From Nemertoderma westbladi (taxonomy: Eukaryota > Animalia > Xenacoelomorpha): a stretch of DNA of 64,000 nucleotides. The stretch covers positions 8,422-72,421 of the forward strand of contig JAUCBJ010002030.1 of the NCBI GenBank assembly GCA_032718475.1, in the 5' to 3' direction. The position numbers and the translations under genes were made by a program. Positions within the stretch are counted from its first letter, which is position 1, and every line of letters begins with the position of its first letter. Below, in pieces: positions 13,131-46,641 of this stretch. The notes under the pieces were generated by a model that had not been told where the DNA came from, ran no database searches, and saw nothing but the letters and a program-made list of their open reading frames with translations.

Positions 13131-13301
13131 CTTGGTTGTATATCGGAAACATGGTTGAAACGCCACATAGCATCAAAATCAATACAATTATCAGGTTACA
13201 ACATTGAAAGGCAGGATAGGAGAAAGAAGAAAGGGGGAGGTGTCTTATTTTACATACCTAGTGGCATTAAATACAATACAAGGGGGGATATTAAATTAGG
13301 G
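13131..13301 (+). pseudogene. 5' fragment of LINE ORF2 (APE endonuclease N-terminus), cut off by the E1 insertion
   Basis: CISETWL...GYNIERQDR...GGGVLFY motif; continues after E1 at 32712. Left boundary approximate. Confidence 0.85.
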
Positions 13302-15200
13302 TAATGCGAAGAGACAGTAACAATACCTGCAATATCCTACTGTAAAGTTTGTGAATCAAATCATAAATCCGACCTTCTCACCAAACAGTAAACTCTAAGT
13401 AAGCGAATATATTGCAGTATCGATCTCTTATAACCGGTGAGGCAGAAAACAGTCTACGAGCAGACAAACTTCGATAAAACAAAATCCCGCGCAGCGAATC
13501 CTAAAATCAGGCTGACTCACTGACGGACTAAAGGGCTCGTATACTTTGCCGCGGTGTGATTTATATGGTTGGGCAAAGAGACGCTAGCTAGGTACAGAGG
13601 CAGAGATTTGGAGATGTCTAACTAGCGGGCAAAACACAGTAAGGACGAAAGTTAATTTTATATATTTTGAGGTGTAAATAATTTCTAACGCGCGTGTGTT
13701 AATTCTGAACGGTCAAAAGCAGTTTTGCTCCTTCACATGTATAATTACTGGGTACGGTGTGCATTTTACGAATATTCTAATTTTGTAACTTGTAGGTCCA
13801 ATACTCACGAATGATAAGGTTCCTTCCCCTCTTGCGTATTTCCAGGACTCAAATTCAGGCATAAGGTTAATGCTACGCCCAGAATTCGGCAATTTTAATT
13901 TACCAGGTCCCTAATACTAAGAAGAAATGTGTTAGTTTACTACAGTAGGCGTACGGTTACGAATAGCTATCCTGGCTCTTATCTAGAATTTTAGTCACCT
14001 AGGTAGGCTGGGTAACTTCCTATCAGGACGTTGGCGGGGACACGGTAGATGTTAGTATATCCCTAATAGCCTCAATTTATTTGCGCCTAGTTGTAAACTG
14101 CCCTACCGCCTGAATGGTACAATCCCAATTCAGGTGAAACACAGCAACCCTCCTAGCCTACAAGTTCTAATGCAATGGACACCGTTGTACTGCAAATAGT
14201 CGCAAACGCACCTGTACTTAGCAAGAGTTAGGCGTACAGTTTGCTGCACCCTACCAATGTGTATGCTTCGTACCGGCGTGCCTACGTCCTATCTGCGTAC
14301 TAGTATCTGCCTGCTCTCTCCCTCCCCCGTAGGAATATGAAGGTCTACTGTGGTTCTTTCCTGAATCAAGACAGTACAGTCCCTAAGATGTAATTTTAGG
14401 CTCACAGCGTGTCACTACTTCTACCTTTGATCTTTGGTCTTACGCTTAGGTAGCAAGGCGTCGAACGCTGTCTAACCTTTCAGGCGATGGGCGAATAACT
14501 AAGGTGGTATTGCGGGTTGTCTCCTGTCTACATTCCCTTGATGTTCCCGTTCATTGCTGCGGCCCGATCTCTAGCCGGCCATCCTGTTCCTAAGAGTGTT
14601 CACCGTAGTGAATCATGGTGAAAAGAAAAGCAGATAGCGGTATTTCTGAATTTATTGCAGATAATAATACAAAATGTAATCTGAAAACTAATGACAGAAT
14701 AAACAAGATTGAGTAACTAATAAGATTAGATAGATTGCACTGAGATTGATAACTAATGAACAAATCGCACCTTTATATAGCAAATTTGTGCTGCAATCAA
14801 TCGAGAAAATTCTCGATTGTTCTATAGGTTCTAACAGGTTTTTAAAGATAGCTATTGGTCCAGCTAATATATAACTTGCACGACATTGGATACAATCTAA
14901 TAACTGCAGTCTCATTGGTTAATCTAGGTACAAACAAATGCAATTTAATTTGTAGCGGTTAATTTAAATGAGTTGAAATTCTGTACAAAAAATAATTAGC
15001 ACTTACTAGGATTCGAACTCAATACCTACTACACATATAATTTCCAACGCTCTACCGACTGAGCTACTGAACCACTTGACTAAACGTCGTACAATAGATA
15101 TAATAAATACAAATGAGGACTCAAAGTAATCTTTTACAAAGTTAATTCGAATAAAATAAAATTTTGAAAATCCACGGCATTTAGGGAATATAATTCTATA
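13302..15200 (-). repeat. E1 3' LTR (1899 bp; sense termini TATA...ATTA)
   Basis: Direct repeat of 29884-32706 once the insert is removed. Confidence 0.95.
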
Positions 15201-15207
15201 CCGCTCC
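15201..15207 (-). promoter_or_regulatory. E1 polypurine tract (GGAGCGG) abutting the 3' LTR
   Basis: Same GGAGCGG sequence abuts the E2 3' LTR. Confidence 0.7.
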
Positions 15208-15379
15208 ATGAAAACAGGATATTATCGTGCATAAAATATACGGTTTTCACCAATAATCAATCAAACTATAGAATACTTAGGGCGTACTTACATATTTACA
15301 ATTAAATTTTAAACAATACTTCCTTTCTACATAATGATTCGATACAAAATAATTACAAATTCAAACTTTACGTAGTTAA

Positions 15380-16085
15380 GGCTTTACTAAGTAAGTACAA
15401 TATAAATCTAAATTAAATTCACCAATATAAATCTATTGCATCTCAATATTGCATAAATTCATACAATTACAAATACAAATAAATGAAAATCATAAGAAAG
15501 GCTCGCGAGTCTTCCATCTACTATTGCATCTCAAATATTGCATAAATTCAAATAATTACGAATACTTACGTGCCTAAATGTAGATTGCATAAGTTCGGAA
15601 TAATTACAAATATGAGTCTTTCTAAGCACAAAACTTTCTAACTATAAAACTTTCTAAATACAAAATATAACACTTTACAAATGAAACTATAAGAAAGGCC
15701 CACGAGTCTTCCATCTACTCTTACTTTCTATTTCACTGTAAATACAAATACTGCTTATAAGATATAAATTGCATAGTATTCGGAACAATATAAATTGCAT
15801 AAGTTCGGAATAATCACAAATATAAAATATAAATTCTTACTAAATATAAATCTTTACTAAATATAAATATAAACTGCATAAGTTTAGAATAATATAAACT
15901 CCTTTACATCTCAAATATGAAACATAAATCTTTCAAATATAAGTTCCTTCTAAATATAAACTTTCTAAATTTCATAAATTCGGAACAATACAAATTGTAT
16001 AAGTTCGGATAAATATAAAATATATAACTCAAATAAATCACAAATTCACAAGAAAGGCTCACGAGTCTTCTGTCCACCCTTGCCC
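15380..16085 (-). repeat. E1 3' untranslated region of degenerate AT-rich tandem repeats, containing three stem-loop motif copies
   Basis: Recurrent TTGCATAAGTTCGGAA / AAATATAAA units; AGAAAGGCTCGCGAGTCTTCC-like copies at 15496, 15693 and 16052. Confidence 0.7.
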
Positions 16086-16089
16086 TCCT

Positions 16090-19000
16090 TTATCGCTTAG
16101 TTGATCGAGCCCTGCCGCGTCCTCGAAAACTGCGCACAGGTGACTTTGCTCGCGATATGGGACTTGTGGGGCGAGTCACTGGTTTCGTTTGGACGTTGAG
16201 AGACGGTGCGACTATTTCCTCGCAAATTCGTCTATTTGGCATCCCAAAACCTCGACCGATTCCTCGTGACCGATCAGTTGTCACTACAGTTGGTAGAACG
16301 TCTGGGAACGCGCGAGAAGCGGACGACACAGACCCAAGAGTAGCTTGCGCCCCCTTTTGATCAGCTGGTGTATGTCCCGATCCTCCTGTTGGTTCTCTAG
16401 GAAGCGATACCGTATCCCGAGTAATTCGAATGGTCGGCTCGACTCCCTTGCGTTCTTCTATATTAATAGACTTCTTTAACTGTTGGCCCACTTTCTGGAC
16501 CCGTATGATCCTACCCTGTCCGTCCTCCCGAGGGTGACGTGCAGACGGCGCAACCGGAGTGGCTGGTATATTTGTCGCCTCTAGGACCTCCTCTTCCTCG
16601 AATACGCTCGCTCGTATACGTTTATGGTAAAACGCGGCTCGGTACGCCCATGCGACGGTTAACCAAGCTCCTTTATTCCGCTTTTCAGTTCGGAAACGAT
16701 CGAATTCACCATACGTGATACGATTTACGACTTTCTGAAAATTCCACGTGTTTTTGTTATCCGGGTGAATCTGTAGTAGATACTCGCGCACTACTCGGAA
16801 TCCACTGTCGTGGGGCAAAATATCGACTACCTCGATAAGTTCGTCATATTGGGGCATAGCGGAGATATATCCTTCCGACATCATCGTTTGGGGATTTACC
16901 GCCCAAAATCCAAGATGCGCCCTCATCGGAAATCGTCTTCTTTGTGCCGATACATGTTCGTCGGCTAAATCTTCCCACTCATCAAATAATTTTCTCACGA
17001 GTTTTACAGATTCGTGTTCATAAGGTATGTCTCTTAGTTGGCATTCAGATGCTCGATGTCCCTTTATATTGCAATAAGTACATTGAGCCATAAATCTCCA
17101 GCAAGTATAAAAGGTATGAGACCCTTGATCTCCACACCATCCACAGATTAGCTGAGTCGTAGTAATGTGCTTTCCACTGCACTTGGTCATATGATGTCCA
17201 GCGACGCCACATTTACCACACATCGTATTGGCAGGGTACCACACTCGTTCGTATATAAGATCTCCAATCGGTCGAGCGCTTCCGCCCACACTATAATCGT
17301 AATCATCTGGATCTATGGGTTGGTAGGTTTCTGAAGGTTGTATACAAACTATAGCATCTGTTGCTTCAAGTTGTCGAATCTCCGTCTGAGATTTCTTCGG
17401 GAGGTTCCTTTCTATCTCAAGAAGTTCCTCTAAAGGATCGTCAGCGATCGTAGTAGTTACTTCGAAATCATCACCAAGGTGACCGATAGGCGCGCGCGTC
17501 TGCCGTGATTCATCCGTAATCTCCACGATACGTTCTCCTTCATAGGGTAACAATGTAAACATAGATGGTCTTTCGATAAGAGATCCCGCACAGCGAAGAT
17601 ACACGTCTCGAAATATACTAAATCCTGCTCGAGTAAAGGCATTACACTGAGCGTCGGAGTTGTAGAAGGGTTCAAGGAATCGTCTAAACACATCGGTATG
17701 AATTCTCCCTTCCATGTAGAACGTATGATCTTCTCCGAGACAAAGTGGATGTCTTTTGAGAGTCCGAGACACAATGTCGGCGATTAGGCAAACATTCACT
17801 GACGACTCTATTGCTAAATAATATTGTAAGACCGCTCTTGGAGGTGACGTAATAGCCCAATACACGCATCCTCTCCATTTAAGCTGTGATTCAAACTCAC
17901 TCATATCTGGAGTATCACCTTCTCCATAAGTCTCAATATACTTGTTTCTCTTACTTTCCTTATAATCCCAATTGAATAACAGGTAGGAAATGTATCCAGT
18001 TCCAGTCTTCTGAGTATTATACTCACGAAAATATCCCTGTTCTATAGACCACAAAATAAGAGGTTGAGTGTCGACGTAAGGTGTCGGTAGTCGGTCATCG
18101 CTGTCCGTCATGCCGGCGAAGTCGCTAATTAAGTCCTCCCTTACTCCTGATCCAATCTTTACAACAGTTTTATCTAAAATGATGTTTCTTACCATCTTCG
18201 GTAGCATTCTAGCGTCGATATTACAAGCTTGGTCCATCTTCTTTACTATGTCGGTGATAAGATGGTGTCGCTTTGTATTCGCTGGAGGTATCGGCATTCG
18301 TTTGTCGCTCCTCTGTCTACTGAAAACGTGCAGGACTCCGTCCGCCGCTCTAATTTGTATAGTCTTAGAAGTCAAACTCTGCTGATGACTGCCGCCCTCG
18401 TTATCGTAAAACATGTAACCATTTTCATGAAACGATCTAAACGTCCTATTCCATTCATCCAACAATTCTTCCGAAGGTTGCCAAATCTTCTCTATGTCCT
18501 TATCATCTTCGAAACGAATAACCTTACCTCGCCAATCCGCGGCAATATCTGTATCCGACTCGAAGGTTCCGGTTCCAATCCATAAACGAATCGTCTTGGT
18601 TAAATATCCTTTCAGATTACTCGGAGCTATATCGGCACCAGCTCTATCCAGTTCCTTAAAGTCTTGAATATGAGGTGGAACGTTGTACACGACCTTTTGA
18701 GTAATATGTCTACGTAAATCATATATCTTACTCATATCGCTGAAAACAACTGCAGGAAGAAACTCCAAGTTTGAAATGATTTCTGGATGATCCACGATGG
18801 GTATTTCGTACGTCGTATCCTGTCGGACTGGTATACTAATAGGAAAATTGAGTGTCGTACTCAATGGTTTCGTAGTTAAAGTACTATATGGTTGCATTTC
18901 TCTTGTCCTCTCCGGGGATGCAATCTGTAGTCTCTGAATAACGTTTTGAGCAAAGTTTATGCTCTCGAAAACTTCCGGTGTCATCTCCTTAGCTGGAGTT

Positions 19001-19815
19001 TGATCGTGTGACGTCCAATGGCAAGGTAGGCTCGCGAGTCTTCCGCCCCATTCTTCCATCTCACCTTTCTCGAAAGCCTTGTAGGCTCTGTATAGGCTAA
19101 GAGCTTCTTTCTTTTCGCGGGTTGACTGATTTGCCTCGTCCAGCGTAAGTTCAAATACATCGGGATCAACAACCTTAGGTGGGTAAATGACAGTTTCTCC
19201 CGCCTTTGGTCCGGTCATAGCAAATGAATGATATGGATTCGATAAAGGATACCCTCCTTCCTGGTAGCGTAGTTGTTGATGGTTCGAACACCTCGCCAAT
19301 ATCGGTTCGGGATTTTCCTTATTCAAATGCATCGGAATCGCATTTCGTTGTTCGCGCATACAAGAACCGCATTGATAATAAAGTTTATAAACTGAAAATG
19401 CTTCCTTGGTTTCTCTATCGTCCCCTCGAGTTCGTCTGTAAAGATGCATTCCATCGAATTCATCTCTTACCGCGGGCATAGGTTCGTGCGCCTTTAGGTA
19501 TTGCATGGTATGATACAAACGACTAATTTCAGTATCGGGGTCTTCGCTAATGTCTCCCGTATCACACAAAGCGTCGTACGGGTAAAGTTCATTGAAGGTT
19601 TTGCGCAAACTTTCGATTCTTTCGTTTAATGCATTTTGTCTTCTCTTTAATACGTTCGAGTCATATTTAGTTCTCGCGAGTTTCGCTGTACTTTCCGATA
19701 ATTCCTTTATACCGAATATAGTGTAGTCCTTGGCTCCAAATCTTTCAAATGGCGCTGCTGCCTCCTCTTGGATATCATATCCCCATCTCGGCTCTCCCTG
19801 TATCACTTTCTCCAT
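16090..19815 (-). CDS. E1 ORF3 (~1241 aa from the first ATG): unassigned N-terminal Cys/His domain + DEDDy 3'-5' exonuclease-like domain + 3 CCHC zinc knuckles + basic tail
   Basis: Intact ORF. ExoI-like FYDNEG followed by TIQIRAADG; LPKMVRNIILDKTVVKIGSGVREDL (ExoII); YVDTQ; W...P...QYYLAIE (ExoIII-like). Knuckles CGKCGVAGHHMTKC, CGWCGDQGSHTFYTC, CTYCNIKGHRASEC. Confidence 0.85.
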   Translation of the reverse strand: MEKVIQGEPRWGYDIQEEAAAPFERFGAKDYTIFGIKELSESTAKLARTKYDSNVLKRRQNALNERIESLRKTFNELYPYDALCDTGDISEDPDTEISRLYHTMQYLKAHEPMPAVRDEFDGMHLYRRTRGDDRETKEAFSVYKLYYQCGSCMREQRNAIPMHLNKENPEPILARCSNHQQLRYQEGGYPLSNPYHSFAMTGPKAGETVIYPPKVVDPDVFELTLDEANQSTREKKEALSLYRAYKAFEKGEMEEWGGRLASLPCHWTSHDQTPAKEMTPEVFESINFAQNVIQRLQIASPERTREMQPYSTLTTKPLSTTLNFPISIPVRQDTTYEIPIVDHPEIISNLEFLPAVVFSDMSKIYDLRRHITQKVVYNVPPHIQDFKELDRAGADIAPSNLKGYLTKTIRLWIGTGTFESDTDIAADWRGKVIRFEDDKDIEKIWQPSEELLDEWNRTFRSFHENGYMFYDNEGGSHQQSLTSKTIQIRAADGVLHVFSRQRSDKRMPIPPANTKRHHLITDIVKKMDQACNIDARMLPKMVRNIILDKTVVKIGSGVREDLISDFAGMTDSDDRLPTPYVDTQPLILWSIEQGYFREYNTQKTGTGYISYLLFNWDYKESKRNKYIETYGEGDTPDMSEFESQLKWRGCVYWAITSPPRAVLQYYLAIESSVNVCLIADIVSRTLKRHPLCLGEDHTFYMEGRIHTDVFRRFLEPFYNSDAQCNAFTRAGFSIFRDVYLRCAGSLIERPSMFTLLPYEGERIVEITDESRQTRAPIGHLGDDFEVTTTIADDPLEELLEIERNLPKKSQTEIRQLEATDAIVCIQPSETYQPIDPDDYDYSVGGSARPIGDLIYERVWYPANTMCGKCGVAGHHMTKCSGKHITTTQLICGWCGDQGSHTFYTCWRFMAQCTYCNIKGHRASECQLRDIPYEHESVKLVRKLFDEWEDLADEHVSAQRRRFPMRAHLGFWAVNPQTMMSEGYISAMPQYDELIEVVDILPHDSGFRVVREYLLQIHPDNKNTWNFQKVVNRITYGEFDRFRTEKRNKGAWLTVAWAYRAAFYHKRIRASVFEEEEVLEATNIPATPVAPSARHPREDGQGRIIRVQKVGQQLKKSINIEERKGVEPTIRITRDTVSLPREPTGGSGHTPADQKGAQATLGSVSSASRAFPDVLPTVVTTDRSRGIGRGFGMPNRRICEEIVAPSLNVQTKPVTRPTSPISRAKSPVRSFRGRGRARSTKR

Positions 19816-20478
19816 AATTAGGGGTGTAGTTACATAATCATTACTACTAGAGGGAATACAACAGAGTTTTGTAGTTAGTTGTGAGGAGACGTGAGAGTTT
19901 CGTCTGCCCTTTGGGCTCGACAACGCTCTAACCTCCTACCCATAGCCTAAGATCTAGGGTTTCTTTAATGACACGCTGCTTCTTATCTAAAATTTTTTGC
20001 CGAAATAAAAACGAATTTGGGCTAAACTGGCTGTGAGTCTAAAATACTCACTTTTTGATCCCAAACTATTATCAGAAAATAAGCAATCAAGAATTAGTAA
20101 TAAATATAGGGGAGTCTATTTATTGACGTAACTTATTGAAACAAGACCGTGTAAAATTTTAATTAAAAATTTAAGAAAGGCTCGCAAGTCTTCCTCTCTT
20201 GTTTCTCTAATTTTAAGTTCCACCCGACTGTACCCTGAAATCTATTCACTGGAGAAAATTTTAAAAATTTTTCAAATCCAAATGGATTGTCTAAAATTTC
20301 GAAAATGTCTCAATATTGTGAGTTCCAAGTAGAATTCCATTTCTTATACCTACAAATCCCGCTCCTATGTGACACATAAGGGTACCACCCTCAATGTTCA
20401 CATATAAAGACAATGGAATTCTACCGCTGTCCTTACTATGGTGTACAGGTACGTGGAAATCTATTTGTAAACTCCTAA

Positions 20479-23400
20479 TTATTTACTAATATTAGGTGGA
20501 GATTTGTAGTCTCCAGAATCGTTACGAGTCTCTTCAAGAAGTACGAGACGTTGAGTCGGTCTGTCTACTGTACGACCGTCAATTGTCCGTACCGTCACAG
20601 TTCTTGTCACTCCATCCATAGATGGATGTGTGTCTAAAATTACACCTGTTATCCAGAAGCGTCTTTTTAGATTCACTTCCGCTAACAGCACGTGATCTCC
20701 CGGCTTTAATGCGCGGGTGTTATTGTACCAAGTTGTTCTGGCAGAAATAGAGGGCAAATAATGGTTTTGCCATATTTCCCAGAATTTGTTAGCTAGTAGT
20801 TGCGTGATTTTCCACGCCTTTCTACCGTAGCTATCGCTTTCTATTGGAATAGAAATAGGCGTCAATGTGGTCGGTGCCTGCATTAGCAGGTGTGCCGGTG
20901 TCAAAGCAAACTGAGATTGTTTGTCATCGGGTACTAATACTATTGGTCTAGTATTTAGTATTGCCTCGATTTCAACAAACAATGTTGTCAGTTGGTCGTC
21001 TGTCAATATGTGGTTTACTAGAATGACCTTTGCCATGGCTGTCTTTATAGATCTAATCAATCTCTCCCAGACTCCGCCTCTCCATGGACTATCTGGAGGA
21101 TTAAACTTCCAAACAATCTTGTAAGGACGTAGTTCGTTTGAGATTTGATCATGATCTAATTTCTTAAAGGCTCTAGCAATCTCATTCCGAGCACCAACAA
21201 AGTTTGTCCCTTGGTCTGAGTACAAGCATTTCACTAGTCCGCGTCTAGCGATAAATCGCCGCAATGCTAGTATAAACGCGTTGGTGGAAAGATCCATCAC
21301 ACGTTCAATATGAACTGCCCTACTGGACATACATGTGAAAATCAGTCCCCAGCGTTTTACTAGTATACGTCCACGTTTCGTATGTATGGGACCAAAGCAA
21401 TCAATTCCAGTCTCTGTAAAAGGTGGTCTGAATGCTTGAAGTCGTGCTTGTGGAAGTTCACTCATTTCTTGGGTACCTATTCTAGAATGTACCTTTTTAC
21501 AAATAATACACGTACGTGTCACTGAACTTAATGCTTTACTGGGTCTAATTAATACAAATCTTGTACGTAAGTAGGAAAGACAGTGGTGTCTTCCAGCGTG
21601 TTTCAGATGTAAATGTGCGTCCAGTATCATTGCACGTTGTAGTTCGTGATGCTGCGGTATTATTATTGGGTATCTAAAGTTTGTGTTAAAGTCAATGTTT
21701 TGAAGCCGAGATTTATGACAAATTAAGCCATTATAAATAATCGGACTCCAACTCAGTATTGGTGACGACTTGATTGGTTGACCTTGATTTATAGATGTGA
21801 ATTCGCGTGCGAAATATCGCAGTTGGTAATGGCGAATTAATTTAATTTCACACCTGTCAATCTCAGCCAATGTAAGTCGACGTGTAAAGTCTCGTTTGCC
21901 TTTAACGTATTGTACAAAACGTACAATCCACGCTAATTTTCGGCAAGCGTTTGTCCAAGAGTCTGTTAAGTTTACAATACGGTCGACGTGAGTATTTGTG
22001 ACGTCATCAGGTAAGTCAATGGAGATTTTGGAAGGTTTTGATTTACTAGAAGGGCCCACGGGTCCGCCGGTAAGTATTCCCTTGTTGACTGTTGATCCGT
22101 CCGGGTCTACAAGTAATTTGTCCTTCTTCGTCTTCTTACCTTGATTGTCAGTACTTTGTAAGTCGATCGTTAATGGTGGTTTGAACTCTATGGGGTCACT
22201 GGGTTTCGGTAAACTTATTTTTCTGCCGACATTAATCCCAGGTCTTACCATAGGTTGCAAGTTTGGTATGTCTCTTGAGCGCAAAGTAACACCTGTATTT
22301 ACATTAGCGTAGGTACTACCCACATCTGTAATACATGAGGTTTCACCGTGCTTACGGTTGCTCAAGTGTGTCAAATTTGGTAGTTTGTCAATACAAGGCC
22401 GCTCCAATAGAGAAACTGCGGCTTCACTATTTGTCAGTATGTCACTAGTGTCTGGTAGAACATTTTGTGATATGTCTGGCAAAATGTCTGGTTGGCTGTC
22501 TAGTAACGTGTCTAGTTGACCGTCTGGCGATATGTCTGGTGTAGAAAGGCTCGCAAGTCTTCCTCTCTTGACCTTTGAAGTTATATCTTTCCATTTCGCC
22601 TTCGGTTTTTTCTTGAGTTTAGCCGCCGTCTTTTTCTTTGCTTTCCCTTTCTTTGGTTTTTTGATTTCCGCGTCTTTAGGGATAGTGTTAGACTTGTTGT
22701 CATATAGTGGTGGCCAATTTAGTGTTGATCTTTGTAAGAATTGTGGTCCGTGTTGCCAAAATTCTTTGTTCTCCGGTTTACAGAATTCCTCAGGCATCAT
22801 TCCTCTTGACGCAATATCGGCTGGGTTTTGTGGTCCGGGACAATGTCTCCAATCTTCTTTTATTGAACGGTCTAGAATTTCCGCGCGACGGTTAGCTACG
22901 AATGTCTTGAATTCAAGTGTGTCGTTGTTTATGTAAAATAAAACCAACGTCGCGTCAGTCCAATAAAATATCTGTAAACTTGACTGTAGTTCTGTCTGTA
23001 TAAGGTTCACAATTGTGGTTGACAGTGTTGCGGCTTGTAGCTCAGCTCGTGGTGTCGTCATATACTTAGTAGGCATTGTTTTTGCCTTAGAAGTAATGAG
23101 CGAAACATCGAATTCTTCTGAGTCTACTTGTCTGCGCAAGTACGCTGCCACACCAAAACCGTTGTCACTGGCGTCCGAAAAACAATGTAATTCCAAGTTG
23201 TCAGGAAATGTTGTTTGTAATGGAAAGTAGACTCTGGGTATGGAATAATCCTCTAGCGAAGATAATTCTGCCTCCCAGGTCTTCCATAAGTCCACTTGGT
23301 CTGATGAGATCGGCTCGTCCCATGTCAGTCCATCCTTCCAAATACTGCGCATATAAATGCGGGCTTGCAGTATTATTGGACTGATGAATCCTAATGGATC

Positions 23401-25944
23401 GAACAATCGGCTCAATTTTGACAAGCATGATCTCTTTGTCAGTGTGTTTTCTTGACTGTCCAGTCTCACCCTCACTCGAAAGTTGTCTGTGTTTGGGTCC
23501 CAAAAGAGCCCCAACACCTTGGTCGTCGGTAGTGGTTCGAACTCTAGGTCTATGTCACCACCTCCACGCTCAGTCGTTCCGAATGAGTCTACTAATTCGG
23601 CACTGTTTGAGGCGAATTTGGTGAGGTTAAAACCTCCGCCCGCTAAGCAGTCCCGTAATTGATGTGCTACTGTTACAGCACGTTCTACTGTGTCACAACT
23701 CTGTAAACCGTCGTCGACGTAAAAGTCACGCTCCACAATCCTAATTATCTCTGGGTCATATAAATGTTTCTGATCCCTAGCGGCTTGTTTTAGGGCGTAC
23801 ATCGTACAGTTTGGGCTGTCTCTGGCACCGAAAACGCGAACTTGCATTTGGTAAGTCGCCGGTGGTAGACTTAAGTCTCCTTCCGGATACCAGAGGAACC
23901 TCAAACTGTCTCTGTCTTGCTCTAACGCTCTCACTTGGTGAAACATAGCTTCAACGTCACAAGTAAAAGCTACTTGACGCTGACGGAAGCGCATAATCAC
24001 CCCCATAAGATAATTATTCATGTTTGGTCCATCCATCAACTCGCTATTGAGGGACATTCCCTCAAACAGAGCCGCACAGTCATTGACTACACGTACTTTG
24101 TCTGGTTTGTCGGGGTGTCTCACATAGTGATGTGGCAGGTAGTATGTCTGGTTAGTCACTATCTCTGGGTTAGTCATTCGGATAGCGTATCCCTTAGTCA
24201 AATACGTCTCCATCTGAGTGTTGTACTGCAGATGGGCTTTCTCGTCCTTTAATAGACGTTGCCGTATTGAGTGTAGACGTCTTAAAGCTAGTGGGTAGTT
24301 ATTTATAAGTTTAGGACTTTGGCTACGCCATAACATCCCCACCTCATAATGTCCGTCTTTCGCCTGGCGGATAGTATCTTCCATGATCCTCAAAGATTGT
24401 TTCTCCTGTTCCGACATACATGGTTCGTAGCTACCAGGTTCAGCTGTATCTTGTTCTAACCACCTGATAGTCTTCTCCGTTAATTCTTTGTCCAATGCAG
24501 CTTGTTCCACTTGATGATTTCTCAACGCGTCATCATCGATATCGACGGGCATTGTTGAGGTTGTTGGGGTAGGTAGACTCGCAAGCCTTCCGGCGTTATC
24601 ATCTGTCGTCGATGGAATCTCTAGCTGACTCGTCTTCTCCCCAAGTTCTAAACTCACCTGGTGAATTAGCTGCTCCTTGTGACTTATCTTACTAGTTACA
24701 CGTCTGTCATGTTTTGTATGTAAGGTAGTATGGTCCACGTCGTGTGAAAAGGAATGAATTGAATTTGTAGTTAATAAACTACATGTACTTTGTACATCGT
24801 CTTCCTCGTCACTTATGTCCAGTGTGCGCACAGGCGCTCGAGTATACCACCCTATCGGCGTTCTACAGGCGTATGCGTTTCCCGCTACGACTGCCGATGG
24901 TCTGGTTTCCCACACTTGATGTAGGTTGAATTGGTCTGTCCCGATCAGCATGGCTACCGATCTATAATTGACAGGACATTCAGGTACACCAAGGTGTCTG
25001 AAATATTTACGGTCCTCCAAGGATTGTTCTGGGACAGGACCTAGTAGGTTACTAAAGTCTTTGGTGGCCACAAAAGTCAAATCCTTGAAGGGTAACAAAG
25101 ACCTCTCCTTTTCGCTGTGTTGCGATTTTGGAAGAAGAGTGTCTAAGTTTAACTTAACTCGTGTCACTGGTATTGCACGTTGTCCGTGCATACTACTTAC
25201 GGTGTAACTGACGCGCTTACCTTGTCTGAGATCCGTCACTACATCAGCTATCTGCTCATCCACGTAGCTGTGAGATGAGGCTGAATCCAGGATAGCGTAG
25301 ATTCTCTTGCTCCCCTTTGTGCCAGTAATCTTAATTGGAATTACGCTGAATCCCTTTAGTTGGTCAGTCGTCAGAAGCGCGATCGATGGTTGGTCGTCTC
25401 CATCAGAATATACGTCGTCGTCTTCTGACTCTTCGTCCAACGATCCGGATTGTTCTGAGAAGCAATCCTTGATATGTGTCACAAAGGTTGGAGTCGTTTT
25501 CGATTCTCGATTTTTGTAGGCCGCATCACATCTCGCTGCTGCTTCCGGGTGTTCCCTGGCGAAGCGTTTTGTTGGCGTGTGGCTGTCTGTGTGGAGCAGA
25601 CCGTCGTGGTTGTGTCCACAGGATGGACAAGTGTTGGTATTTGGGCAATCTTTGCGAACGTGTCCGTGTCGCGTACACCGCCAACAAGAGTCCAATGGCC
25701 GTATCTGCAGCCGTCGTTCTTCCGAGTTTAACTCGCGAAACTGTCGACAACCTCTCAACTTGTGACCGATATACCGCTTGCCTAAATGCTCGCAGTATTG
25801 GCAGCCGCTGAAGTCGGTACCGAGTTGCTGTCTAGTCTGTTTTGTCCCAATGGGCGCAGATACCCTACTACCGTCCGAGAATTGTCGGGTTTCCGTCGGT
25901 GTGGCGTAAGTGGCCGTCTTGGTGGATGTTGTCTGGGGTTTTTG
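20479..25944 (-). CDS. pol: E1 NC-Pol: three BEL zinc knuckles, aspartic protease, RT, RNase H, integrase (in frame with gag, after a single TGA)
   Basis: CWRCTRHGHVRKDC, CPSCGHNHDGLLH; ILDSAS; YYLPHH, CDVEAMF, FYVDD; CFSDAS, RAELQAA, WTDA, NPAD; H...H...CIIC, GIDCFG, SDQGTNF, WERLIRS. Frame is open from 25944. Confidence 0.95.
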   Translation of the reverse strand, partial: QKPQTTSTKTATYATPTETRQFSDGSRVSAPIGTKQTRQQLGTDFSGCQYCEHLGKRYIGHKLRGCRQFRELNSEERRLQIRPLDSCWRCTRHGHVRKDCPNTNTCPSCGHNHDGLLHTDSHTPTKRFAREHPEAAARCDAAYKNRESKTTPTFVTHIKDCFSEQSGSLDEESEDDDVYSDGDDQPSIALLTTDQLKGFSVIPIKITGTKGSKRIYAILDSASSHSYVDEQIADVVTDLRQGKRVSYTVSSMHGQRAIPVTRVKLNLDTLLPKSQHSEKERSLLPFKDLTFVATKDFSNLLGPVPEQSLEDRKYFRHLGVPECPVNYRSVAMLIGTDQFNLHQVWETRPSAVVAGNAYACRTPIGWYTRAPVRTLDISDEEDDVQSTCSLLTTNSIHSFSHDVDHTTLHTKHDRRVTSKISHKEQLIHQVSLELGEKTSQLEIPSTTDDNAGRLASLPTPTTSTMPVDIDDDALRNHQVEQAALDKELTEKTIRWLEQDTAEPGSYEPCMSEQEKQSLRIMEDTIRQAKDGHYEVGMLWRSQSPKLINNYPLALRRLHSIRQRLLKDEKAHLQYNTQMETYLTKGYAIRMTNPEIVTNQTYYLPHHYVRHPDKPDKVRVVNDCAALFEGMSLNSELMDGPNMNNYLMGVIMRFRQRQVAFTCDVEAMFHQVRALEQDRDSLRFLWYPEGDLSLPPATYQMQVRVFGARDSPNCTMYALKQAARDQKHLYDPEIIRIVERDFYVDDGLQSCDTVERAVTVAHQLRDCLAGGGFNLTKFASNSAELVDSFGTTERGGGDIDLEFEPLPTTKVLGLFWDPNTDNFRVRVRLDSQENTLTKRSCLSKLSRLFDPLGFISPIILQARIYMRSIWKDGLTWDEPISSDQVDLWKTWEAELSSLEDYSIPRVYFPLQTTFPDNLELHCFSDASDNGFGVAAYLRRQVDSEEFDVSLITSKAKTMPTKYMTTPRAELQAATLSTTIVNLIQTELQSSLQIFYWTDATLVLFYINNDTLEFKTFVANRRAEILDRSIKEDWRHCPGPQNPADIASRGMMPEEFCKPENKEFWQHGPQFLQRSTLNWPPLYDNKSNTIPKDAEIKKPKKGKAKKKTAAKLKKKPKAKWKDITSKVKRGRLASLSTPDISPDGQLDTLLDSQPDILPDISQNVLPDTSDILTNSEAAVSLLERPCIDKLPNLTHLSNRKHGETSCITDVGSTYANVNTGVTLRSRDIPNLQPMVRPGINVGRKISLPKPSDPIEFKPPLTIDLQSTDNQGKKTKKDKLLVDPDGSTVNKGILTGGPVGPSSKSKPSKISIDLPDDVTNTHVDRIVNLTDSWTNACRKLAWIVRFVQYVKGKRDFTRRLTLAEIDRCEIKLIRHYQLRYFAREFTSINQGQPIKSSPILSWSPIIYNGLICHKSRLQNIDFNTNFRYPIIIPQHHELQRAMILDAHLHLKHAGRHHCLSYLRTRFVLIRPSKALSSVTRTCIICKKVHSRIGTQEMSELPQARLQAFRPPFTETGIDCFGPIHTKRGRILVKRWGLIFTCMSSRAVHIERVMDLSTNAFILALRRFIARRGLVKCLYSDQGTNFVGARNEIARAFKKLDHDQISNELRPYKIVWKFNPPDSPWRGGVWERLIRSIKTAMAKVILVNHILTDDQLTTLFVEIEAILNTRPIVLVPDDKQSQFALTPAHLLMQAPTTLTPISIPIESDSYGRKAWKITQLLANKFWEIWQNHYLPSISARTTWYNNTRALKPGDHVLLAEVNLKRRFWITGVILDTHPSMDGVTRTVTVRTIDGRTVDRPTQRLVLLEETRNDSGDYKSPPNISK

Positions 25945-28900
25945 TCAGTTTGAGGATGGCAAGGTGATTCCTTCTGCCACGATGTGCTGGTCAGTGTAGT
26001 TGGATTGAGTTTCTACCACTGCCTCCCTGGATATCAAAATGTACACATCCTCCAGTTTTAAGAATCCATCCCGCTCTTCTCGCTGGTATTCGATCTTCCT
26101 CCACTCCCGACGAAGTCGATGGTGGAGTCGTCCTATGATCTTTAATAGGACTGTAGGGGTATTCCCGTAGTCAAGTTGTCCAATGGATCTCAAAGTAGTG
26201 ATAGCGTTCTTTATCTCGTCAGCCAGTTTCAATAAGTCTACGGGTTTAGTAATAGCCCCTCCCTTACAGAGTTCCTCTATCACTGACCTGGCCATGCTGA
26301 CTGTACCTCTGTAGATCGAAGTTAAACGATCGTACGCTAGTTCGAAAGCGTCCGGTACACCAACAAAGGTCTCCGCCAAACGTTTAGGTTCTCCTGACAA
26401 CGTTTGAAGCAGGTAATTAAACTTCTCCCGTGATGTAAAGGCGCACACGGCGATCTGAGATTCGATATAGTCTACGAAAGTGTGCCAGTGTTTTGAACTA
26501 CCGGAAAACTTCGGTGGTTGTTGTACCGGCAATCCCTGTCTGGCTGCGAATTTCGCTATCTCCTCGGCAACGTTCAGAATTTCGCGTCCTTGGTTGGTAA
26601 TCTGGTTGATATCCCTTCTTGGCGCTTTTCCCTGATACGATGTGTGTTTTGAAGGTACCGGTCTTTGTGGTTCCTTCGGGTGTCTATTGTGTTCGAATTC
26701 AGTGTTCCTCGAACTATCGGTTTGAACTTCCTCCAGACGTTCCTCAATCTGAGCCAACTTGTTAACAACTGGTCGCAGGATGTCGGCGAACTGTTGTATA
26801 CTGATTGCGTCCGTTGGTTGTAACGCCTTCTGTGTTGGTGTATTCTGTGGAGGATTGTCTACAAAGGAGTTGTCTGAACGCTCGCGTTTATATTCATCGG
26901 CCGCCCCTGTTCTAAATACCTCGCGTTTCGGGTAATCCGATTCGCTCGAAGTACTACTATCATCTGGATATGGTGGTCGACATGTTCGCGTCCGTTGCGT
27001 CGTCCGAATTCTAACGTTTCGCCTCGGAACATCGTCCACTGATCTCCGCTGCTCGGTAGGCTCACAAGTCTTCCTTGAAGTCGTAGATTGCGATGTAAAC
27101 TGGTTGAACGGTCGCATATCCACTGGTCTCCGTTGTTCGGTAGGCTCACAAGTCTTCCTCGAAGTCGTAGATTGCGATGTAAACTGGACCGGTGGTCGAA
27201 TAGCCGCCTTTGAATCAACTGGCCTTGTAGGCCGAAATGTCATTGGGTATTCGTAGTGTGTAACCGGTTTAGGTGTCAAAGGTGGACTCACGTGTTTTGT
27301 CGTTAGTAGTGCAGGTCCGGTCAATAAACTACTACGATCTGTAATCGGTGGGTTACTTACCTTGACTTTCAGAATAGGCGACGACGTTGCTCTTGGCGGT
27401 GTAAACTTGTCCGGAATAACAAACCTGTGTTCCGTCGCACCATGGATAGGAGAAATATCACTACTACCCGCAATCGAAACAGGTTTCTTAGTTGTAACTG
27501 GTGCGAACATAGGGGTTACTTGAGGGAATCTTTGACATAAGTCTTTAACTAATTGTCGTTCCCGTCCGGGTGCTCCTACGCTTCCTTCCTTCTTCCGTTC
27601 CTGAATTTGGCGATGTCTTACCTCTAACTGGTCCAAATCATGTCCGTCACGAGATCTCATTGATCGATCGCGGGCCTTTTGATCCAGATCCTCCTCGGCG
27701 TTCGCTAATTCTCTCGCCTTCTTCTCGAGTTCAAAATGAAGTTTAGCTGTCTTCTCTCGTTGTTCCGTTTGTTGTCGTTGCGCCTCAAACTCCGCTTGTC
27801 GTATAGCGGATTGAGCTTTTATTTGCCGTGTTTTCATTTCGGCCCGTGCTTCCGAAACTAATCGTTCTCGCTCTAATTCCGCCACTGCCGTTTGTCGCTC
27901 TAGTTCTGCCATTTGTCGCTCTAATTCCGCCGCTGCCGTTTGTCGCTCTAGTTCGGCCGCTGCCGTTTGTCGCTTTAATTCTGCCGTTTGTCGCTCTAAT
28001 TCCGCCGCTGCCGTTTGTCGCTCTAGTTCTGCCGCTGCGTTTCGTTGCGCTAAATCAGCCGCTGCCGTTCGTTGAGCAATGTCTACCTCTAACCTTTCTA
28101 CTTCAGCTGCTTCTAATTCAGCTTGTTCCTGTAGATGAGAGATTCTCGCTACATTCGCAACGCGTAGCTTCTCTTCTTCTGCTGCTGCCTGCATCACTAG
28201 AAGTTGAGCTTGTTCCTCCATTTCTCGTCGTTGTCGGTAGAATTCTTGCTGTTGTCGAGCAACTTCTGACGTAACCATACTTCCCTCGCCAATTTCGCTA
28301 CGAATACTTACCAACGATTGATCCAATATTCCCGTTGCCGATTCGATTCGTACGGGTGAAGTTTCCCTCGTATATTCCGGCACGGTTTCCAAATCGCCGA
28401 CGTCGACGCACATACGTAAGTGATCCGTCAGGTGTTTCAATTGTCCATCCAGTCGGTACAGTTCCTGTTCTTCCTCGGGTTGTAATAATTCGTCCGAAAC
28501 TGACTCACCTAACAACTGGTCCGCTTGTTCCTGTTGTATCTGCCTAATCGTCGACTTAAACTGAATCAGTTTCTCTCTAGCGATCATTAGTTTATCGAGG
28601 ATTCTAAGTTGAGTATCCATGTCCTGTCTCTGTCTAGCTAGATCTTGTAGACCAATTAGGTTATCTACGGACTTGTGTACTCTACTTTGTACTCTAACCT
28701 GGAGGGTGTAGAACTCGAATCGAGACATCGGAGCGGTCAACTCGTTTAAAATGCGTTGGCCTTCTCCAATACTCCTGGTTATATGCGCCATGTATCCGCC
28801 GACGCTTCTAACCACACTCTCCTGACTTCCTGCTGAACTTACCATGTCTGTTTCCCTGTATCTAGGTTGTGGAACAGTTAGAAAGTCCTCGGTCCTGCCG

Positions 28901-29073
28901 TCGCCTCGTACTACGGCATCCGGTACTCCCGTTGGATGTACTGGTGACGCACACGGTGTAGGTTCGGTAGGCTCGCGAGTCTTCCCCTGTTGTTCTTCCG
29001 CTGCTGACTTATCTCCGTCGCATGAGTCATAGTCGGTAGGTGTATTCTTCGTATAGTCTTGTTTGTCACTCAT
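25945..29073 (-). CDS. gag: E1 Gag (1042 aa; coiled-coil TAAAELERQ repeats, BEL capsid-like region)
   Basis: PPKFSG..W..F...EKFNYLLQTLSGEPK...AYDRLTSIY motif typical of BEL/Pao Gag; lies after the 5' LTR. Confidence 0.92.
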   Translation of the reverse strand: MSDKQDYTKNTPTDYDSCDGDKSAAEEQQGKTREPTEPTPCASPVHPTGVPDAVVRGDGRTEDFLTVPQPRYRETDMVSSAGSQESVVRSVGGYMAHITRSIGEGQRILNELTAPMSRFEFYTLQVRVQSRVHKSVDNLIGLQDLARQRQDMDTQLRILDKLMIAREKLIQFKSTIRQIQQEQADQLLGESVSDELLQPEEEQELYRLDGQLKHLTDHLRMCVDVGDLETVPEYTRETSPVRIESATGILDQSLVSIRSEIGEGSMVTSEVARQQQEFYRQRREMEEQAQLLVMQAAAEEEKLRVANVARISHLQEQAELEAAEVERLEVDIAQRTAAADLAQRNAAAELERQTAAAELERQTAELKRQTAAAELERQTAAAELERQMAELERQTAVAELERERLVSEARAEMKTRQIKAQSAIRQAEFEAQRQQTEQREKTAKLHFELEKKARELANAEEDLDQKARDRSMRSRDGHDLDQLEVRHRQIQERKKEGSVGAPGRERQLVKDLCQRFPQVTPMFAPVTTKKPVSIAGSSDISPIHGATEHRFVIPDKFTPPRATSSPILKVKVSNPPITDRSSLLTGPALLTTKHVSPPLTPKPVTHYEYPMTFRPTRPVDSKAAIRPPVQFTSQSTTSRKTCEPTEQRRPVDMRPFNQFTSQSTTSRKTCEPTEQRRSVDDVPRRNVRIRTTQRTRTCRPPYPDDSSTSSESDYPKREVFRTGAADEYKRERSDNSFVDNPPQNTPTQKALQPTDAISIQQFADILRPVVNKLAQIEERLEEVQTDSSRNTEFEHNRHPKEPQRPVPSKHTSYQGKAPRRDINQITNQGREILNVAEEIAKFAARQGLPVQQPPKFSGSSKHWHTFVDYIESQIAVCAFTSREKFNYLLQTLSGEPKRLAETFVGVPDAFELAYDRLTSIYRGTVSMARSVIEELCKGGAITKPVDLLKLADEIKNAITTLRSIGQLDYGNTPTVLLKIIGRLHHRLRREWRKIEYQREERDGFLKLEDVYILISREAVVETQSNYTDQHIVAEGITLPSSN

Positions 29074-29872
29074 TTCGGTAGTTGTAAGTCAAGTAAAGTG
29101 AGTGTCAAAGTATCAAACTTACCATATTTTATCTAAACGGTACTAATTACAGTCATATAAAATTAGCCTACCGGCCGATTTTATAGCAGATGGATAAAAT
29201 TAGCCTAAACGGCCAATTTTACAGCAAATAAATGTCACGGAATAAGTATATAATAAAATTAGCCTAGCGGCCAATTTTATAACAAATAAATCGGATAACG
29301 ATATGCGTTATCAAAAGGTAAATTAAATACAATAATACGGACTAATTCAGCAATGAACAAAGAAATCGTACGGAATGCATAAATACTTGAGGCAGTGGAA
29401 CCCACAATAATTTTAACTAATACGGTAATGCCTAACTTATTTATGCAACTTTTCGAACTCACCCACTCCAATAATTCTCCAGAAAAACAGATTCCCAGAT
29501 ACAAACCGGACGTGAACCTTTCCGTTTTTAACGTTGCGGACGAAGCGCGATTTTCCCAACCAAAGTTGTTGAGTTATCTATCTCCCAAACTTGCTAAACA
29601 CGGTCTTGCTCCCGTTACAGTCTAGAAATGAGTTCTGAATCCTGAAAAAACAAAAGAGTTAGGTTTTACTTTTTACGAAAATTTTGTACCGGTACAATAT
29701 GGTATTTAAACCCTTTTAAACACCGGTATTCAATTCCAAAATATTTTACACGCGGTTCAAATCAAATTTTTATTTCAAAAAATTAGCACTTAGCTAATCA
29801 AATACAAATTTTTACCTCAAAATACAAAATTTTCAAATAACTTTAGTCCTACCGAACCGTAGTTCAGTAAAA

Positions 29873-29883
29873 CATATTCCTAC
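29873..29883 (-). promoter_or_regulatory. E1 PBS-position sequence GTAGGAATATG, complementary to the element's own LTR (30911-30921)
   Basis: 11/11 reverse complement starting at the first base after the LTR; no TGG tRNA PBS nearby. Confidence 0.75.
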
Positions 29884-32706
29884 TAATGCGAAGAGACAGT
29901 AACAATACCTGCAATATCCTACTGTAAAGTTTGTGAATCAAATCATAAATCCGACCTTCTCACCAAACAGTAAACTCTAAGTAAGCGAATATATTGCAGT
30001 ATCGATCTCTTATAACCGGTGAGGCAGAAAACAGTCTACGAGCAGACAAACTTCGATAAAACAAAATCCCGCGCAGCGAATCCTAAAATCAGGCTGACTC
30101 ACTGACGGACTAAAGGGCTCGTATACTTTGCCGCGGTGTGATTTATATGGTTGGGCAAAGAGACGCTAGCTAGGTACAGAGGCAGAGATTTGGAGATGTC
30201 TAACTAGCGGGCAAAACACAGTAAGGACGAAAGTTAATTTTATATATTTTGAGGTGTAAATAATTTCTAACGCGCGTGTGTTAATTCTGAACGGTCAAAA
30301 GCAGTTTTGCTCCTTCACATATATAATTACTGGGTACGGTGTGCATTTTACGAATATTCTAATTTTGTAACTTGTAGGTCCAATACTCACGAATGATAAG
30401 GTTCCTTCCCCTCTTGCGTATTTCCAGGACTCAAATTCAGGCATAAGGTTAATGCTATGCCCAGAATTCGGCAATTTTAATTTACCAGGTCCCTAATACT
30501 AAGAAGAAATGTGTTAGTTTACTACAGTAGGCGTACGGTTACGAATAGCTATCCTGGCTCTTATCTAGAATTTTAGTCACCTAGGTAGGCTGGGTAACTT
30601 CCTATCAGGACGTTGGCGGGGACACGGTAGATGTTAGTATATCCCTAATAGCCTCAATTTATTTGCGCCTAGTTGTAAACTGCCCTACCGCCTGAACGGT
30701 ACAATCCCAATTCAGGTGAAACACAGCAACCCTCCTAGCCTACAAGTTCTAATGCAATGGACACCATTGTACTGCAAATAGTCGCAAACGCACCTGTACT
30801 TAGCAAGAGTTAGGCGTACAGTTTGCTGCACCCTACCAATGTGTATGCTTCGTACCGGCGTACCTACGTCCTATCTGCGTACTAGTATCTGCCTGCTCTC
30901 TCCCTCCCCCGTAGGAATATGAAGGTCTACTGTGGTTCTTTCCTGAATCAAGACAGTACAGTCCCTAAGATGTAATTTTAGGCTCACAGCGTGTCACTAC
31001 TTCTACCTTTGATCTTTGGTCTTACGCTTAGGTAGCAAGGCGTCGAACGCTGTCTAACCTTTCAGGCGATGGGCGAATAACTAAGGTGGTATTGCGGGTT
31101 GTCTCCTGTCTACATTCCCTTGATGTTCCCGTTCATTGCTGCGGCCCGATCTCTAGCCGGCCATCCTGTTCCTAAGAGTGTTCACCGTAGTGAATCATGG
31201 TGAAAAGAAAAGCAGATAGCAGTATTTCTGAATTTATTGCAGATAATAATACAAAATGTAATCTGAAAACTAATGACAGAATAAACAAGATTGAGTAACT
31301 AATAAGATTAGATAGATTGCACTGAGATTGATAACTAATGAACAAATCGCACCTTTATATAGCAAATTTGTGCTGCAATCAATCGAGAAAATTCTCGATT
31401 GTTCTATAGGTTCTAACAGGTTTTTAAAGATAGCTATTGGTCCAGCTAATATATAACTTGCACGACATTGGATACAATCTAATAACTGCAGTCTCATTGG
31501 TTAATCTAGGTACAAACAAATGCAATGGAGCCACTCCACGAGGCGAACCGCGCGGCACTGCGGGCGGCCACAACAACGCCACTCGAGATCGCCCGTCTTA
31601 ACGTTGTTGACGACCCGGTATCCGGTTGTTGGCTGGACGCTATTCCCATCAGCTCGCTAGGGCTGAAACTCACGGACTCCCAGTTCAGGGTTTCTGTCGC
31701 CACACGCCTCGGTTGCAAGTTAACCGAACCCCACAGGTGCTCCCGGTGCGGATCCGAAGTAAAACCGGATGGTCTCCACGGACTATCCTGTGTGAGAAGC
31801 GCCGGGAGGCTGCCACGCCACTCTATGTTAAACGACATAGTGAAACGTGCATTGGCCTCCTGTGGGGTTAGAGCTCGCCTTGAACCGGTCGGGTTGTGTA
31901 GGGCTGATGGGAAGCGTGTCGATGGCGTTACCCTCGAATCGTGGAGTGGGGGCCGGCCGATGACTGGGATGCGACCGTCGTCGACCCCCTCGCTCCCAGT
32001 CATCTCGCCCAGAGCATGCAGGCCGGCCGCCATGTTGTCGAGGAGGCGGAAAACTCAAAGATTAAGAAATACGAGGAACTGACCGTCCGAGGGAGCTACC
32101 TCTTCTACCCGGTAGCATTCGAGACCTTCGGTCGGCCCGGTCCTGAGACGGCTGCATTCCTTAAGGAGGTTGGCCGACGCCTCCACGCAGCCACTCAGGA
32201 GCCGCGATCCCATCGGTTCCTCCTCCAACGTCTCCTCGTAGCCATCTTGATCGGCAACACGGCCTCCATCCTCGGCTCCATGGACCCTCTGTCCGACGGC
32301 CTCTACGACGAGGTTTTGTCGCCAGCTGCCCCCGCACCCCCCACTGACTCAGCGGGTTAGACTGATCTTGAACTTTTGTATATAGTTAGGTAGGTAGTTT
32401 ATATTAATTTAGTTAGTGTGCCTCATTGTGCTATAAGAAAATAATGCAATTTAATTTGTAGCGGTTAATTTAAATGAGTTGAAATTCTGTACAAAAAATA
32501 ATTCGCACTTACTAGGATTCGAACTCAATACCTACTACACATATAATTTCCAACGCTCTACCGACTGAGCTACTGAACCACTTGACTAAACGTCGTACAA
32601 TAGATATAATAAATACAAATGAGGACTCAAAGTAATCTTTTACAAAGTTAATTCGAATAAAATAAAATTTTGAAAATCCACGGCATTTAGGGAATATAAT
32701 TCTATA
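29884..32706 (-). repeat. E1 5' LTR, interrupted by a 916-bp CRE-like insert
   Basis: Matches 13302-15200 at offset 16582 before and 17506 after the insert. Confidence 0.95.
31527..32442 (+). mobile_element. 5'-truncated CRE-like non-LTR retrotransposon (zinc knuckle + restriction-like endonuclease), frameshifted
   Basis: CSRCG...HGLSC, RHSMLND, DGKRVDG, WDATVVD, EEAENSKIKKY, FYPVAFETFG; 8-bp TSD AATGCAAT at 31519-31526 and 32443-32450; absent from the other LTR. Confidence 0.88.
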
Positions 32707-32788
32707 TAGGGAACAATAGCACTATACAACGAATAATAATAAAAGCAATACATGCAATTATAAGAAAGAAAATAAAAAATATGACTCA

Positions 32789-46639: not shown

Positions 46640-46641
46640 CT

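Follow-up and report, generated by a model that had tools for sequence, protein, structure and literature searches.

A BEL/Pao-type retrotransposon of Nemertoderma westbladi with a likely DEDDy exonuclease fold in its third gene and a self-complementary primer-binding site

We analyzed a 64,000-nucleotide (nt) stretch of Nemertoderma westbladi DNA, hereafter the window (assembly GCA_032718475.1, contig JAUCBJ010002030.1, positions 8,422 to 72,421 of the forward strand). Our subject is one complete long terminal repeat (LTR) retrotransposon in it, element 1, which lies on the minus strand from 32706 to 13302. Between the end of pol at 20479 and the start of the 3' LTR at 15200, in the slot for env, element 1 carries a third open reading frame (ORF), ORF3, whose N-terminal domain recurs in a neighboring element of the window, element 2. 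ORF3 is laid out as follows (aa, amino acid positions):

16090..19815, minus strand: ORF3, 1241 codons, intact, with no stop
19249..19641, minus strand: N-terminal domain, aa 59-189, CxxC...CxxH, common to the ORF3 of element 2 (40925-42745)
19029..19043, minus strand: copy of GAAGACTYGYGRGCC inside ORF3, one of 10 sense-strand copies
17740..18450, minus strand: predicted DEDDy/DnaQ-fold domain, aa 456-692, with two insertions; D471, E473 and D561 placed
17041..17220, minus strand: three CCHC zinc knuckles, aa 866-925, at 17220-17179, 17145-17101 and 17082-17041
16093..16218, minus strand: basic C-terminal tail, with 11 K/R against 1 D/E in the last 42 aa

The remaining five frames over ORF3 hold 47-83 stops, and its GC content by codon position matches that of gag and pol. 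A preliminary description, made from the sequence without database searches, had reported an intact ORF of about 1240 aa between pol and the 3' LTR, with three zinc knuckles and with no obvious signal peptide or membrane anchor, and our analysis bears this out. The best 19-residue Kyte-Doolittle mean reaches 1.38, so that no transmembrane segment was found, and the N-terminus is not hydrophobic, as a signal peptide would be. With neither signal peptide nor membrane anchor, an env identity for ORF3 was rejected. The N-terminal domain is 31% identical to its counterpart in element 2 (E 3e-11), a score that none of 500 shuffles equaled.

Element 1 is 19.4 kb long, or 18.5 kb once a 916-bp insert is subtracted. 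Its other parts, including the primer-binding site (PBS), reverse transcriptase (RT) and target-site duplication (TSD), are:

29873..29883, minus strand: PBS position, where TGG is missing and 11 nt form a perfect complement to the element's own LTR
30911..30921, minus strand: candidate self-primer in the 5' LTR, predicted to pair in three blocks to about 30940
14329..14339, minus strand: candidate self-primer in the 3' LTR, at LTR position 862-872
29884..32706, minus strand: 5' LTR, termini TATAG...CATTA, split by the 916-bp insert
31527..32442, plus strand: the insert, a 916-bp non-LTR retrotransposon fragment with an 8-bp duplication, which we take to be CRE-like
13302..15200, minus strand: 3' LTR, 1899 bp
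32707..32711, minus strand: TSD CCCTA, upstream copy, 5 bp
13297..13301, minus strand: TSD CCCTA, downstream copy, 5 bp
25945..29073, minus strand: gag, capsid region, DUF1759, stopping at an in-frame TGA before the nucleocapsid knuckles
20479..25944, minus strand: nucleocapsid knuckles, protease, RT, RNase H plus integrase, with catalytic motifs present
15201..15207, minus strand: short polypurine tract GGAGCGG; the same tract precedes the 3' LTR of element 2

By its proteins element 1 is BEL/Pao-type. Profile scores in pol reach 145 bits for Peptidase_A17 and 74 bits for DUF5641; PF05380, PF18701 and PF03564 exceed their cut-offs; the motifs run in the order protease, RT, RNase H, integrase; and the LTRs, TSD and polypurine tract are those of a BEL/Pao element. 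The preliminary description recognized an LTR retrotransposon but missed its superfamily. Like Belpaoviridae as profiled by the International Committee on Taxonomy of Viruses (ICTV; PMC8742986), element 1 has the gag and pol families, domain order, LTRs, 5-bp TSD, polypurine tract and an optional third gene. That profile gives 4.2-10 kb for the whole element, 0.2-1.2 kb for the LTR and an 18-nt PBS for a host tRNA, whereas element 1 is about twice the size (18.5 kb without the insert), its 1.9-kb LTR exceeds the stated range, its LTR ends are TA...TA rather than TG...CA, it lacks a tRNA-Arg/Gly PBS and its third gene is not env-like (PMC8742986). We use the cautious name BEL/Pao-type because a self-complementary PBS stands where the ICTV profile has a tRNA PBS. 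The LTR pair shows 7 differences in 1907 compared positions, near-identity that points to a young insertion. A tandem array with a common LTR was ruled out, since the TSD and polypurine tract mark one complete insertion.

Several lines of evidence suggest that aa 456-692 of ORF3 adopt a DEDDy/DnaQ fold, a sequence-based assignment that we consider likely, although the evidence is weak. In the ESM Atlas, 24 of 30 matches to aa 430-760 fell in the PF01612 set, the top three being unnamed clusters, and all 30 named matches to aa 455-700 were PF01612 (top score 0.93, with 175 of 256 features in common); these two results make up a single source, and 4-10 of 100 shuffled proteins attain 0.9, a figure for whole proteins. 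The sole NCBIfam match of the fragment was DNA polymerase III epsilon (DnaQ) over the ExoI motif, at E=0.029, far below the cut-off. In a five-block chain built from 27 RNase D domains, ORF3 scored 17.6 against -2.8+-4.4 for shuffles, with 0 of 300 as high, topping 14 of 15 held-out PolA domains and landing on the motifs from D471/E473 to W653; the blocks were chosen after the motifs of the preliminary description were known. Unguided MAFFT alignment with 44 bacterial DEDDy domains placed D471, E473, Q487, D561, K622, W653 and Y665 on invariant columns, and ORF3 matched 10 of 15 conserved columns, a count that none of 60 shuffles and none of 29 real segments attained.

D471, E473 and D561 fall where such a fold would have them. 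D471 and E473 (nt 18405 and 18399) form the D-x-E of ExoI and lie on a strand of a guided structural model, and were misplaced in an RNase D-only alignment; the ExoII aspartate D561 (nt 18135) aligned in every profile and alignment tried. IQI at 486-488, the DTQ aspartate D582 (nt 18072) and W653 complete the series, in the order that the preliminary description had given. AlphaFold guided by the bacterial alignment produced a DnaQ topology, with a predicted local distance difference test (pLDDT) of 72.5 and a predicted template-modeling score (pTM) of 0.70, even though identity is about 18% and two insertions, of about 36 and 25 residues, interrupt the domain. This model matched EXD2 (E 2e-4, template-modeling (TM) score 0.30) and, among re-examined Foldseek matches, NrnC (Z 14.7, root-mean-square deviation 3.0, 157 aligned), then Nibbler, WRN and EXD1 (Z 12-13), and also Egalitarian; the match is circular, in that the input alignment dictates the fold, and so indicates compatibility only. 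The structure check proposed earlier thus came out divided, with the guided model showing the expected topology, while the single-sequence model had a pLDDT of 31 and no fold match and Pfam gave none.

Other results weigh against the exonuclease assignment or against activity. Pfam returned 0 matches to the domain at E<=10, short of the PF01612 cut-off; four home-made hidden Markov models (HMMs) gave E=2, 0.75, 1.1 and 0.36 among 63 window ORFs, none significant, although ORF3 was the best-scoring ORF in three of the four; and hhalign returned nothing for the domain. A WRN-like seven-block chain from 30 bacterial domains was not significant, with 38 of 300 shuffles as good, and both ExoIII candidates scored in it were negative. 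On the 11 strictly invariant columns ORF3 has 7, which three of the 60 shuffles and one of the 29 real segments equaled. The exonuclease call of the preliminary description therefore holds as a likely fold whose scores lie below standard thresholds.

For the fourth metal ligand, the ExoIII register is, depending on the method, Y666/E670, Y665/I669 or Y630/D634: E670 lies in a long predicted helix, I669 has the canonical W+12 spacing, and D634 has the canonical letters in a glycine/proline context. The earlier reading of a glutamate in place of the ExoIII aspartate thus corresponds to one register, with which two others compete. In these models the ligand may be E670, D634 or absent, and the domain may be inactive; we found no literature data on an ExoIII D-to-E change. 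Judged from these motifs, nuclease activity is about an even bet. The domain shares with the cellular DEDDy family (RNase D, WRN, EXD1/EXD2, Nibbler/Mut-7, NrnC, Egalitarian) the predicted fold, the DxE, the ExoII aspartate and the 'KxGxG...D' and 'DTQ' motifs. It differs in its roughly 18% identity, its insertions of about 36 and 25 residues and its lack of a canonical YxxxD in helical context. It could be assigned to no DEDDy subfamily, and we file it as DEDDy-like rather than as a PF01612 member.

Searches for relatives of ORF3 and of its exonuclease region returned none in protein clusters of 682-2172 and 209-665 aa. Nor did ORF3 have relatives among 1.84 billion representative proteins, PDB sequences, metagenome contigs or plasmids (where the single match was unrelated), and a tblastn search of 75 metagenome BEL-integrase loci, of which 26 extend at least 2 kb past the integrase, found none. 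In these loci long post-integrase ORFs were tandem gag genes or without assignment (5 ORFs scanned), and viral contigs yielded no relatives for RT or integrase. Because a recently captured host gene should have surfaced in such searches, we infer that ORF3 has probably been resident for long under selection. The sequence features agree that ORF3 is not the one-off passenger that the preliminary description had considered: it has no detectable host homolog, its GC pattern is that of the element, it has GAAGACTYGYGRGCC embedded, and it shares its N-terminal domain with element 2.

The motif GAAGACTYGYGRGCC occurs in 10 sense-strand copies, 9 exact and 1 with two changes, in element 1 only, spread over 15500-28984 on the minus strand; both strands together hold 15 matches against 0.6 expected. 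The copies fall in gag, pol, ORF3 and non-coding DNA, in differing reading frames, and part of them stem from local duplications. The variants would still allow a weak hairpin with a YGYG loop, or a palindromic dimer, and GAAGACTYGYGRGCC is a candidate packaging or dimerisation signal. The 75 metagenome BEL loci had 0 matches.

The second unusual feature of element 1 is its PBS. An 11-nt complement at this site arose in 2 of 5000 and 0 of 3000 Markov LTRs, and 11-nt complementarity to the LTR is reached at 11 of 14,663 internal positions of element 1. The LTR-PBS pairing would end exactly at the LTR/PBS junction. Two further elements of the window could be compared:

39307-52068, minus strand: element 2, a second BEL family, with TG...CA LTRs 95% alike and TSD TTGTA
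59464-64000, plus strand: element 3, related to element 2, cut off by the window end, with a 10-nt self-complementary PBS of other sequence

Element 2 has gag and protease without RT; its ORF3 is broken and has just the N-terminal domain in common with element 1, and its PBS is self-complementary over 12 nt. A partial LTR of the element 3 kind lies at 55567-56175. We also looked for an eroded exonuclease in the element 2 ORF3 and rejected it, since 15 of 500 shuffles did as well over one short stretch and 183-461 of 500 elsewhere.

In all three window elements with a readable LTR-leader junction the PBS is self-complementary: perfect complements of 11, 12 and 10 nt begin at the first base past the LTR in elements 1, 2 and 3, and were equaled by 0, 0 and 8 of 3000 chance trials, respectively. 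Over the first 10 bases of the PBS, elements 2 and 3 differ at three, and each difference is mirrored at the LTR site, the homology of the two LTR sites being judged from position only. Among 40 metagenome BEL loci of at least 5 kb, 18 had a repeat pair; the complement reached at most 7 nt, and 11 of the 18 had a TGG-type PBS. Because the three window elements share the complement and the metagenome BEL controls do not, predicted self-priming is well supported as a lineage trait of the window elements. We found no published case of self-priming in BEL/Pao elements, in a search mostly outside subscription journals.

The LTR of element 1 has a TATA box at 422 and AATAAA at 545 and 1120, and the primer segment lies about 430 nt past the TATA box. 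It also holds a tRNA-like segment:

15002..15075, minus strand, with a copy in the 5' LTR: A-box/B-box segment about 130 nt into the LTR, with a T run

Its first 12 nt, first picked by eye, pair best of 1887 LTR 12-mers just downstream of the PBS core. A Pol III transcript or a 5'-3' circularisation is possible on this pattern; we rejected a functional tRNA gene in the LTR, which neither ARAGORN nor Rfam called.

Taken together, our best guess is that ORF3 acts on the element's own RNA, possibly trimming an LTR-derived self-primer to the PBS duplex. We give this reading a probability of roughly one in three, barely ahead of a host-facing role, and favor it because element 1 and its two neighbors lack a tRNA PBS and have instead 10-12 nt complementary to their own LTRs. 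The ORF3 protein would be made from its own mRNA and enter the particle, where its knuckles and basic tail would bind genomic RNA. If the TATA box at 422 is used, the primer segment would be internal to the transcript and carry a 3' tail, so that a new 3' end would be needed. The ORF3 nuclease would then remove the tail, halt at the duplex and leave a 3'-OH for RT. RNase D-type enzymes stop at duplexes. A similar function, 3'-end processing of element RNA, was proposed by Rodriguez et al. in 2017 (PMC5408684; here and below, papers other than PMC8742986 are cited for their accessible portions).

Primer trimming also faces difficulties. Nothing in the sequence ties the ORF3 nuclease to the self-complementary PBS, and element 2 has a self-primer yet no detectable exonuclease in its ORF3, although without RT it is not a clean test. 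The Tf1 primer is made by RNase H cleavage alone (PMC7175516), and the RNase H motifs of element 1 are intact. DEDDy ORFs recur in gypsy-type elements, Penelope-like elements and DNA transposons (PMC5408684, PMC3706591, PMC6431247), and such recurrence in unrelated elements favors a general role. If transcription starts at the primer, trimming would be needless, and the doubtful ExoIII also weakens the case for it. The preliminary description had listed self-primer trimming among its options; the self-complementary PBS on which that option depends is real, in three of three elements with a readable junction.

The full picture, a giant tRNA-independent BEL/Pao lineage with a packaged, knuckle-guided DEDDy exonuclease that trims an internal LTR transcript to an 11-bp duplex, we regard as rather unlikely as a whole. 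If true, it would add a third way for retroelements to start reverse transcription to the two that rely on host tRNA and on RNase H cleavage of the Tf1 type.

A tentative alternative casts ORF3 as an RNA-binding factor directed at the host. Whether catalytically active or weakened, it would protect the element's RNA from small-RNA silencing, break down or sequester RNA that is small or double-stranded, or route the element's RNA like Egalitarian-type pseudo-nucleases. It comes close behind because unrelated elements capture DEDD domains repeatedly, rotifer LTR lineages having gained DEDDy domains on at least two occasions and sharing them with Terminons (PMC5408684), and because immune evasion rather than proofreading is the task of the arenavirus exonuclease (PMC7968707). 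The non-canonical ExoIII of ORF3 would suit this role, as would the resemblance of the guided model to EXD2, Nibbler, EXD1 and Egalitarian, with the circularity of that model. Direct sequence evidence for a host-facing role is absent; small RNAs still cover the rotifer elements that have a DEDDy ORF3, and these have not clearly gained in copy number (PMC5408684), and we found no publication on a retrotransposon-encoded anti-piRNA exonuclease.

It is improbable, given the fold evidence, that the region has no DnaQ fold at all and that an orphan accessory protein bears the motifs by chance. The negative PDB sequence, Pfam, HMM, hhalign and WRN-like chain results would fit such a protein, as would the single-sequence model and the Atlas scores that shuffles attain, but the Atlas, NCBIfam, the motif chain and the unguided alignment agree on the same residues, and the guided model reached its topology despite low identity and two insertions.

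About as improbable is a role in polishing cDNA 3' ends (non-templated additions, strong-stop or pre-integration ends), with DNA rather than RNA as substrate. DEDDy enzymes act on single-stranded DNA too (PMC5408684), a similar role has been proposed for Dada transposon exonucleases (PMC3706591), and the LTR termini of element 1 are the non-canonical TA...TA. Element 2, however, integrated with a normal TSD without a known nuclease. The three zinc knuckles, moreover, suggest single-stranded RNA binding. Proofreading of reverse transcription in an unusually long element, another option raised earlier, is very improbable: the length of element 1 (18.5 kb without the insert, against 4.2-10 kb; PMC8742986) and the nidovirus precedent (PMC7968707) speak for it, but ORF3 is separate and unfused to RT, the extra domains listed for Ogre (16-25 kb) and Burro (>30 kb) include no exonuclease in the accessible part of PMC6431247, and rotifer DEDDy elements have short LTRs and an ordinary layout (PMC5408684).

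The nearest precedent, which the preliminary description had missed, comes from rotifers, where Juno, Vesta and the Terminons have DEDDy ORF3s with a DEED motif whose activity has not been demonstrated (Rodriguez, Kenefick, Arkhipova 2017, PMC5408684). Juno and Vesta resemble element 1 in having a separate ORF3 in the env position, with a DEDDy-type domain (a predicted one in element 1), no transmembrane segment and, if E670 is the fourth ligand of ORF3, one D-to-E change. They are gypsy-type, with TG...CA LTRs of 159-551 bp and the DEED motif (PMC5408684), whereas element 1, compared by description, is BEL/Pao-type with 1.9-kb LTRs and a 1241-aa multidomain ORF3 with three knuckles, in which the ExoII aspartate is normal and ExoIII appears altered. 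As judged from sequence, ORF3 would work like the rotifer DEDDy ORF3s; by host element and motif it is not a member of that group.

For the PBS the closest parallel is Tf1/Tf2 of the Tf1/sushi group, which have no tRNA PBS and in which 11 nt of RNA from the LTR are the complement of the PBS (PMC7175516, PMC6317226). The PBS of element 1 is likewise the complement of element RNA ending at the LTR junction. In Tf1, a Ty3/gypsy element, RNase H releases the primer, which consists of the transcript's first 11 nt (PMC7175516, PMC6317226), whereas the segment in element 1, which is known from sequence alone, lies at LTR position 862-872. Dada DNA transposons offer a transposon-borne DEDDy domain with proposed 3'-end processing; unlike ORF3, theirs lies inside the transposase of a DNA transposon and keeps all four ligands (PMC3706591).

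We found no published case of an exonuclease ORF in a BEL/Pao element, in a search mostly outside subscription journals and Repbase Reports; the accessible part of PMC12440569 has no mention of an exonuclease, and BEL/Pao sequences among which such ORFs might occur are in the supplements of PMC3118150. Nor did the literature, as far as it was accessible, yield a retrotransposon-borne DEDDy domain with demonstrated function. Three things are new here: a host element of BEL/Pao type, a predicted domain joined to three knuckles and to an N-terminal domain specific to the lineage, and the coincidence of these with priming that is independent of tRNA. The predicted domain would extend DEDDy capture to a further retroelement group, and the window shows that elements of BEL/Pao type can lie beyond the ICTV size range and do without tRNA priming. 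Because element 1 offers a concrete candidate substrate, its own LTR-PBS duplex, together with an intact gene, the 2017 question of DEDDy function can now be tested in the tube.

The remaining observations concern element 1 outside ORF3 and its surroundings. The in-frame TGA at 25945-25947 (minus strand), with the capsid region on one side and the nucleocapsid knuckles and pol on the other, has two readings: a site of readthrough, or a break in this copy. Some 250 lysine-rich and low-complexity residues of pol, at about 21900-22650 (minus strand), lie between RNase H and integrase. Element 1 is nested in an older degenerate BEL pol (10721-13195), beside a LINE ORF (32720-35428) that is presumably L2-like, and the nested cluster around 13302-32706 has no CpG depletion (observed/expected 0.94-1.26). 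Tandem arrays with periods of 20, 28 and 68 nt lie from 4608 and at 56153-57411 and 58019-58630.

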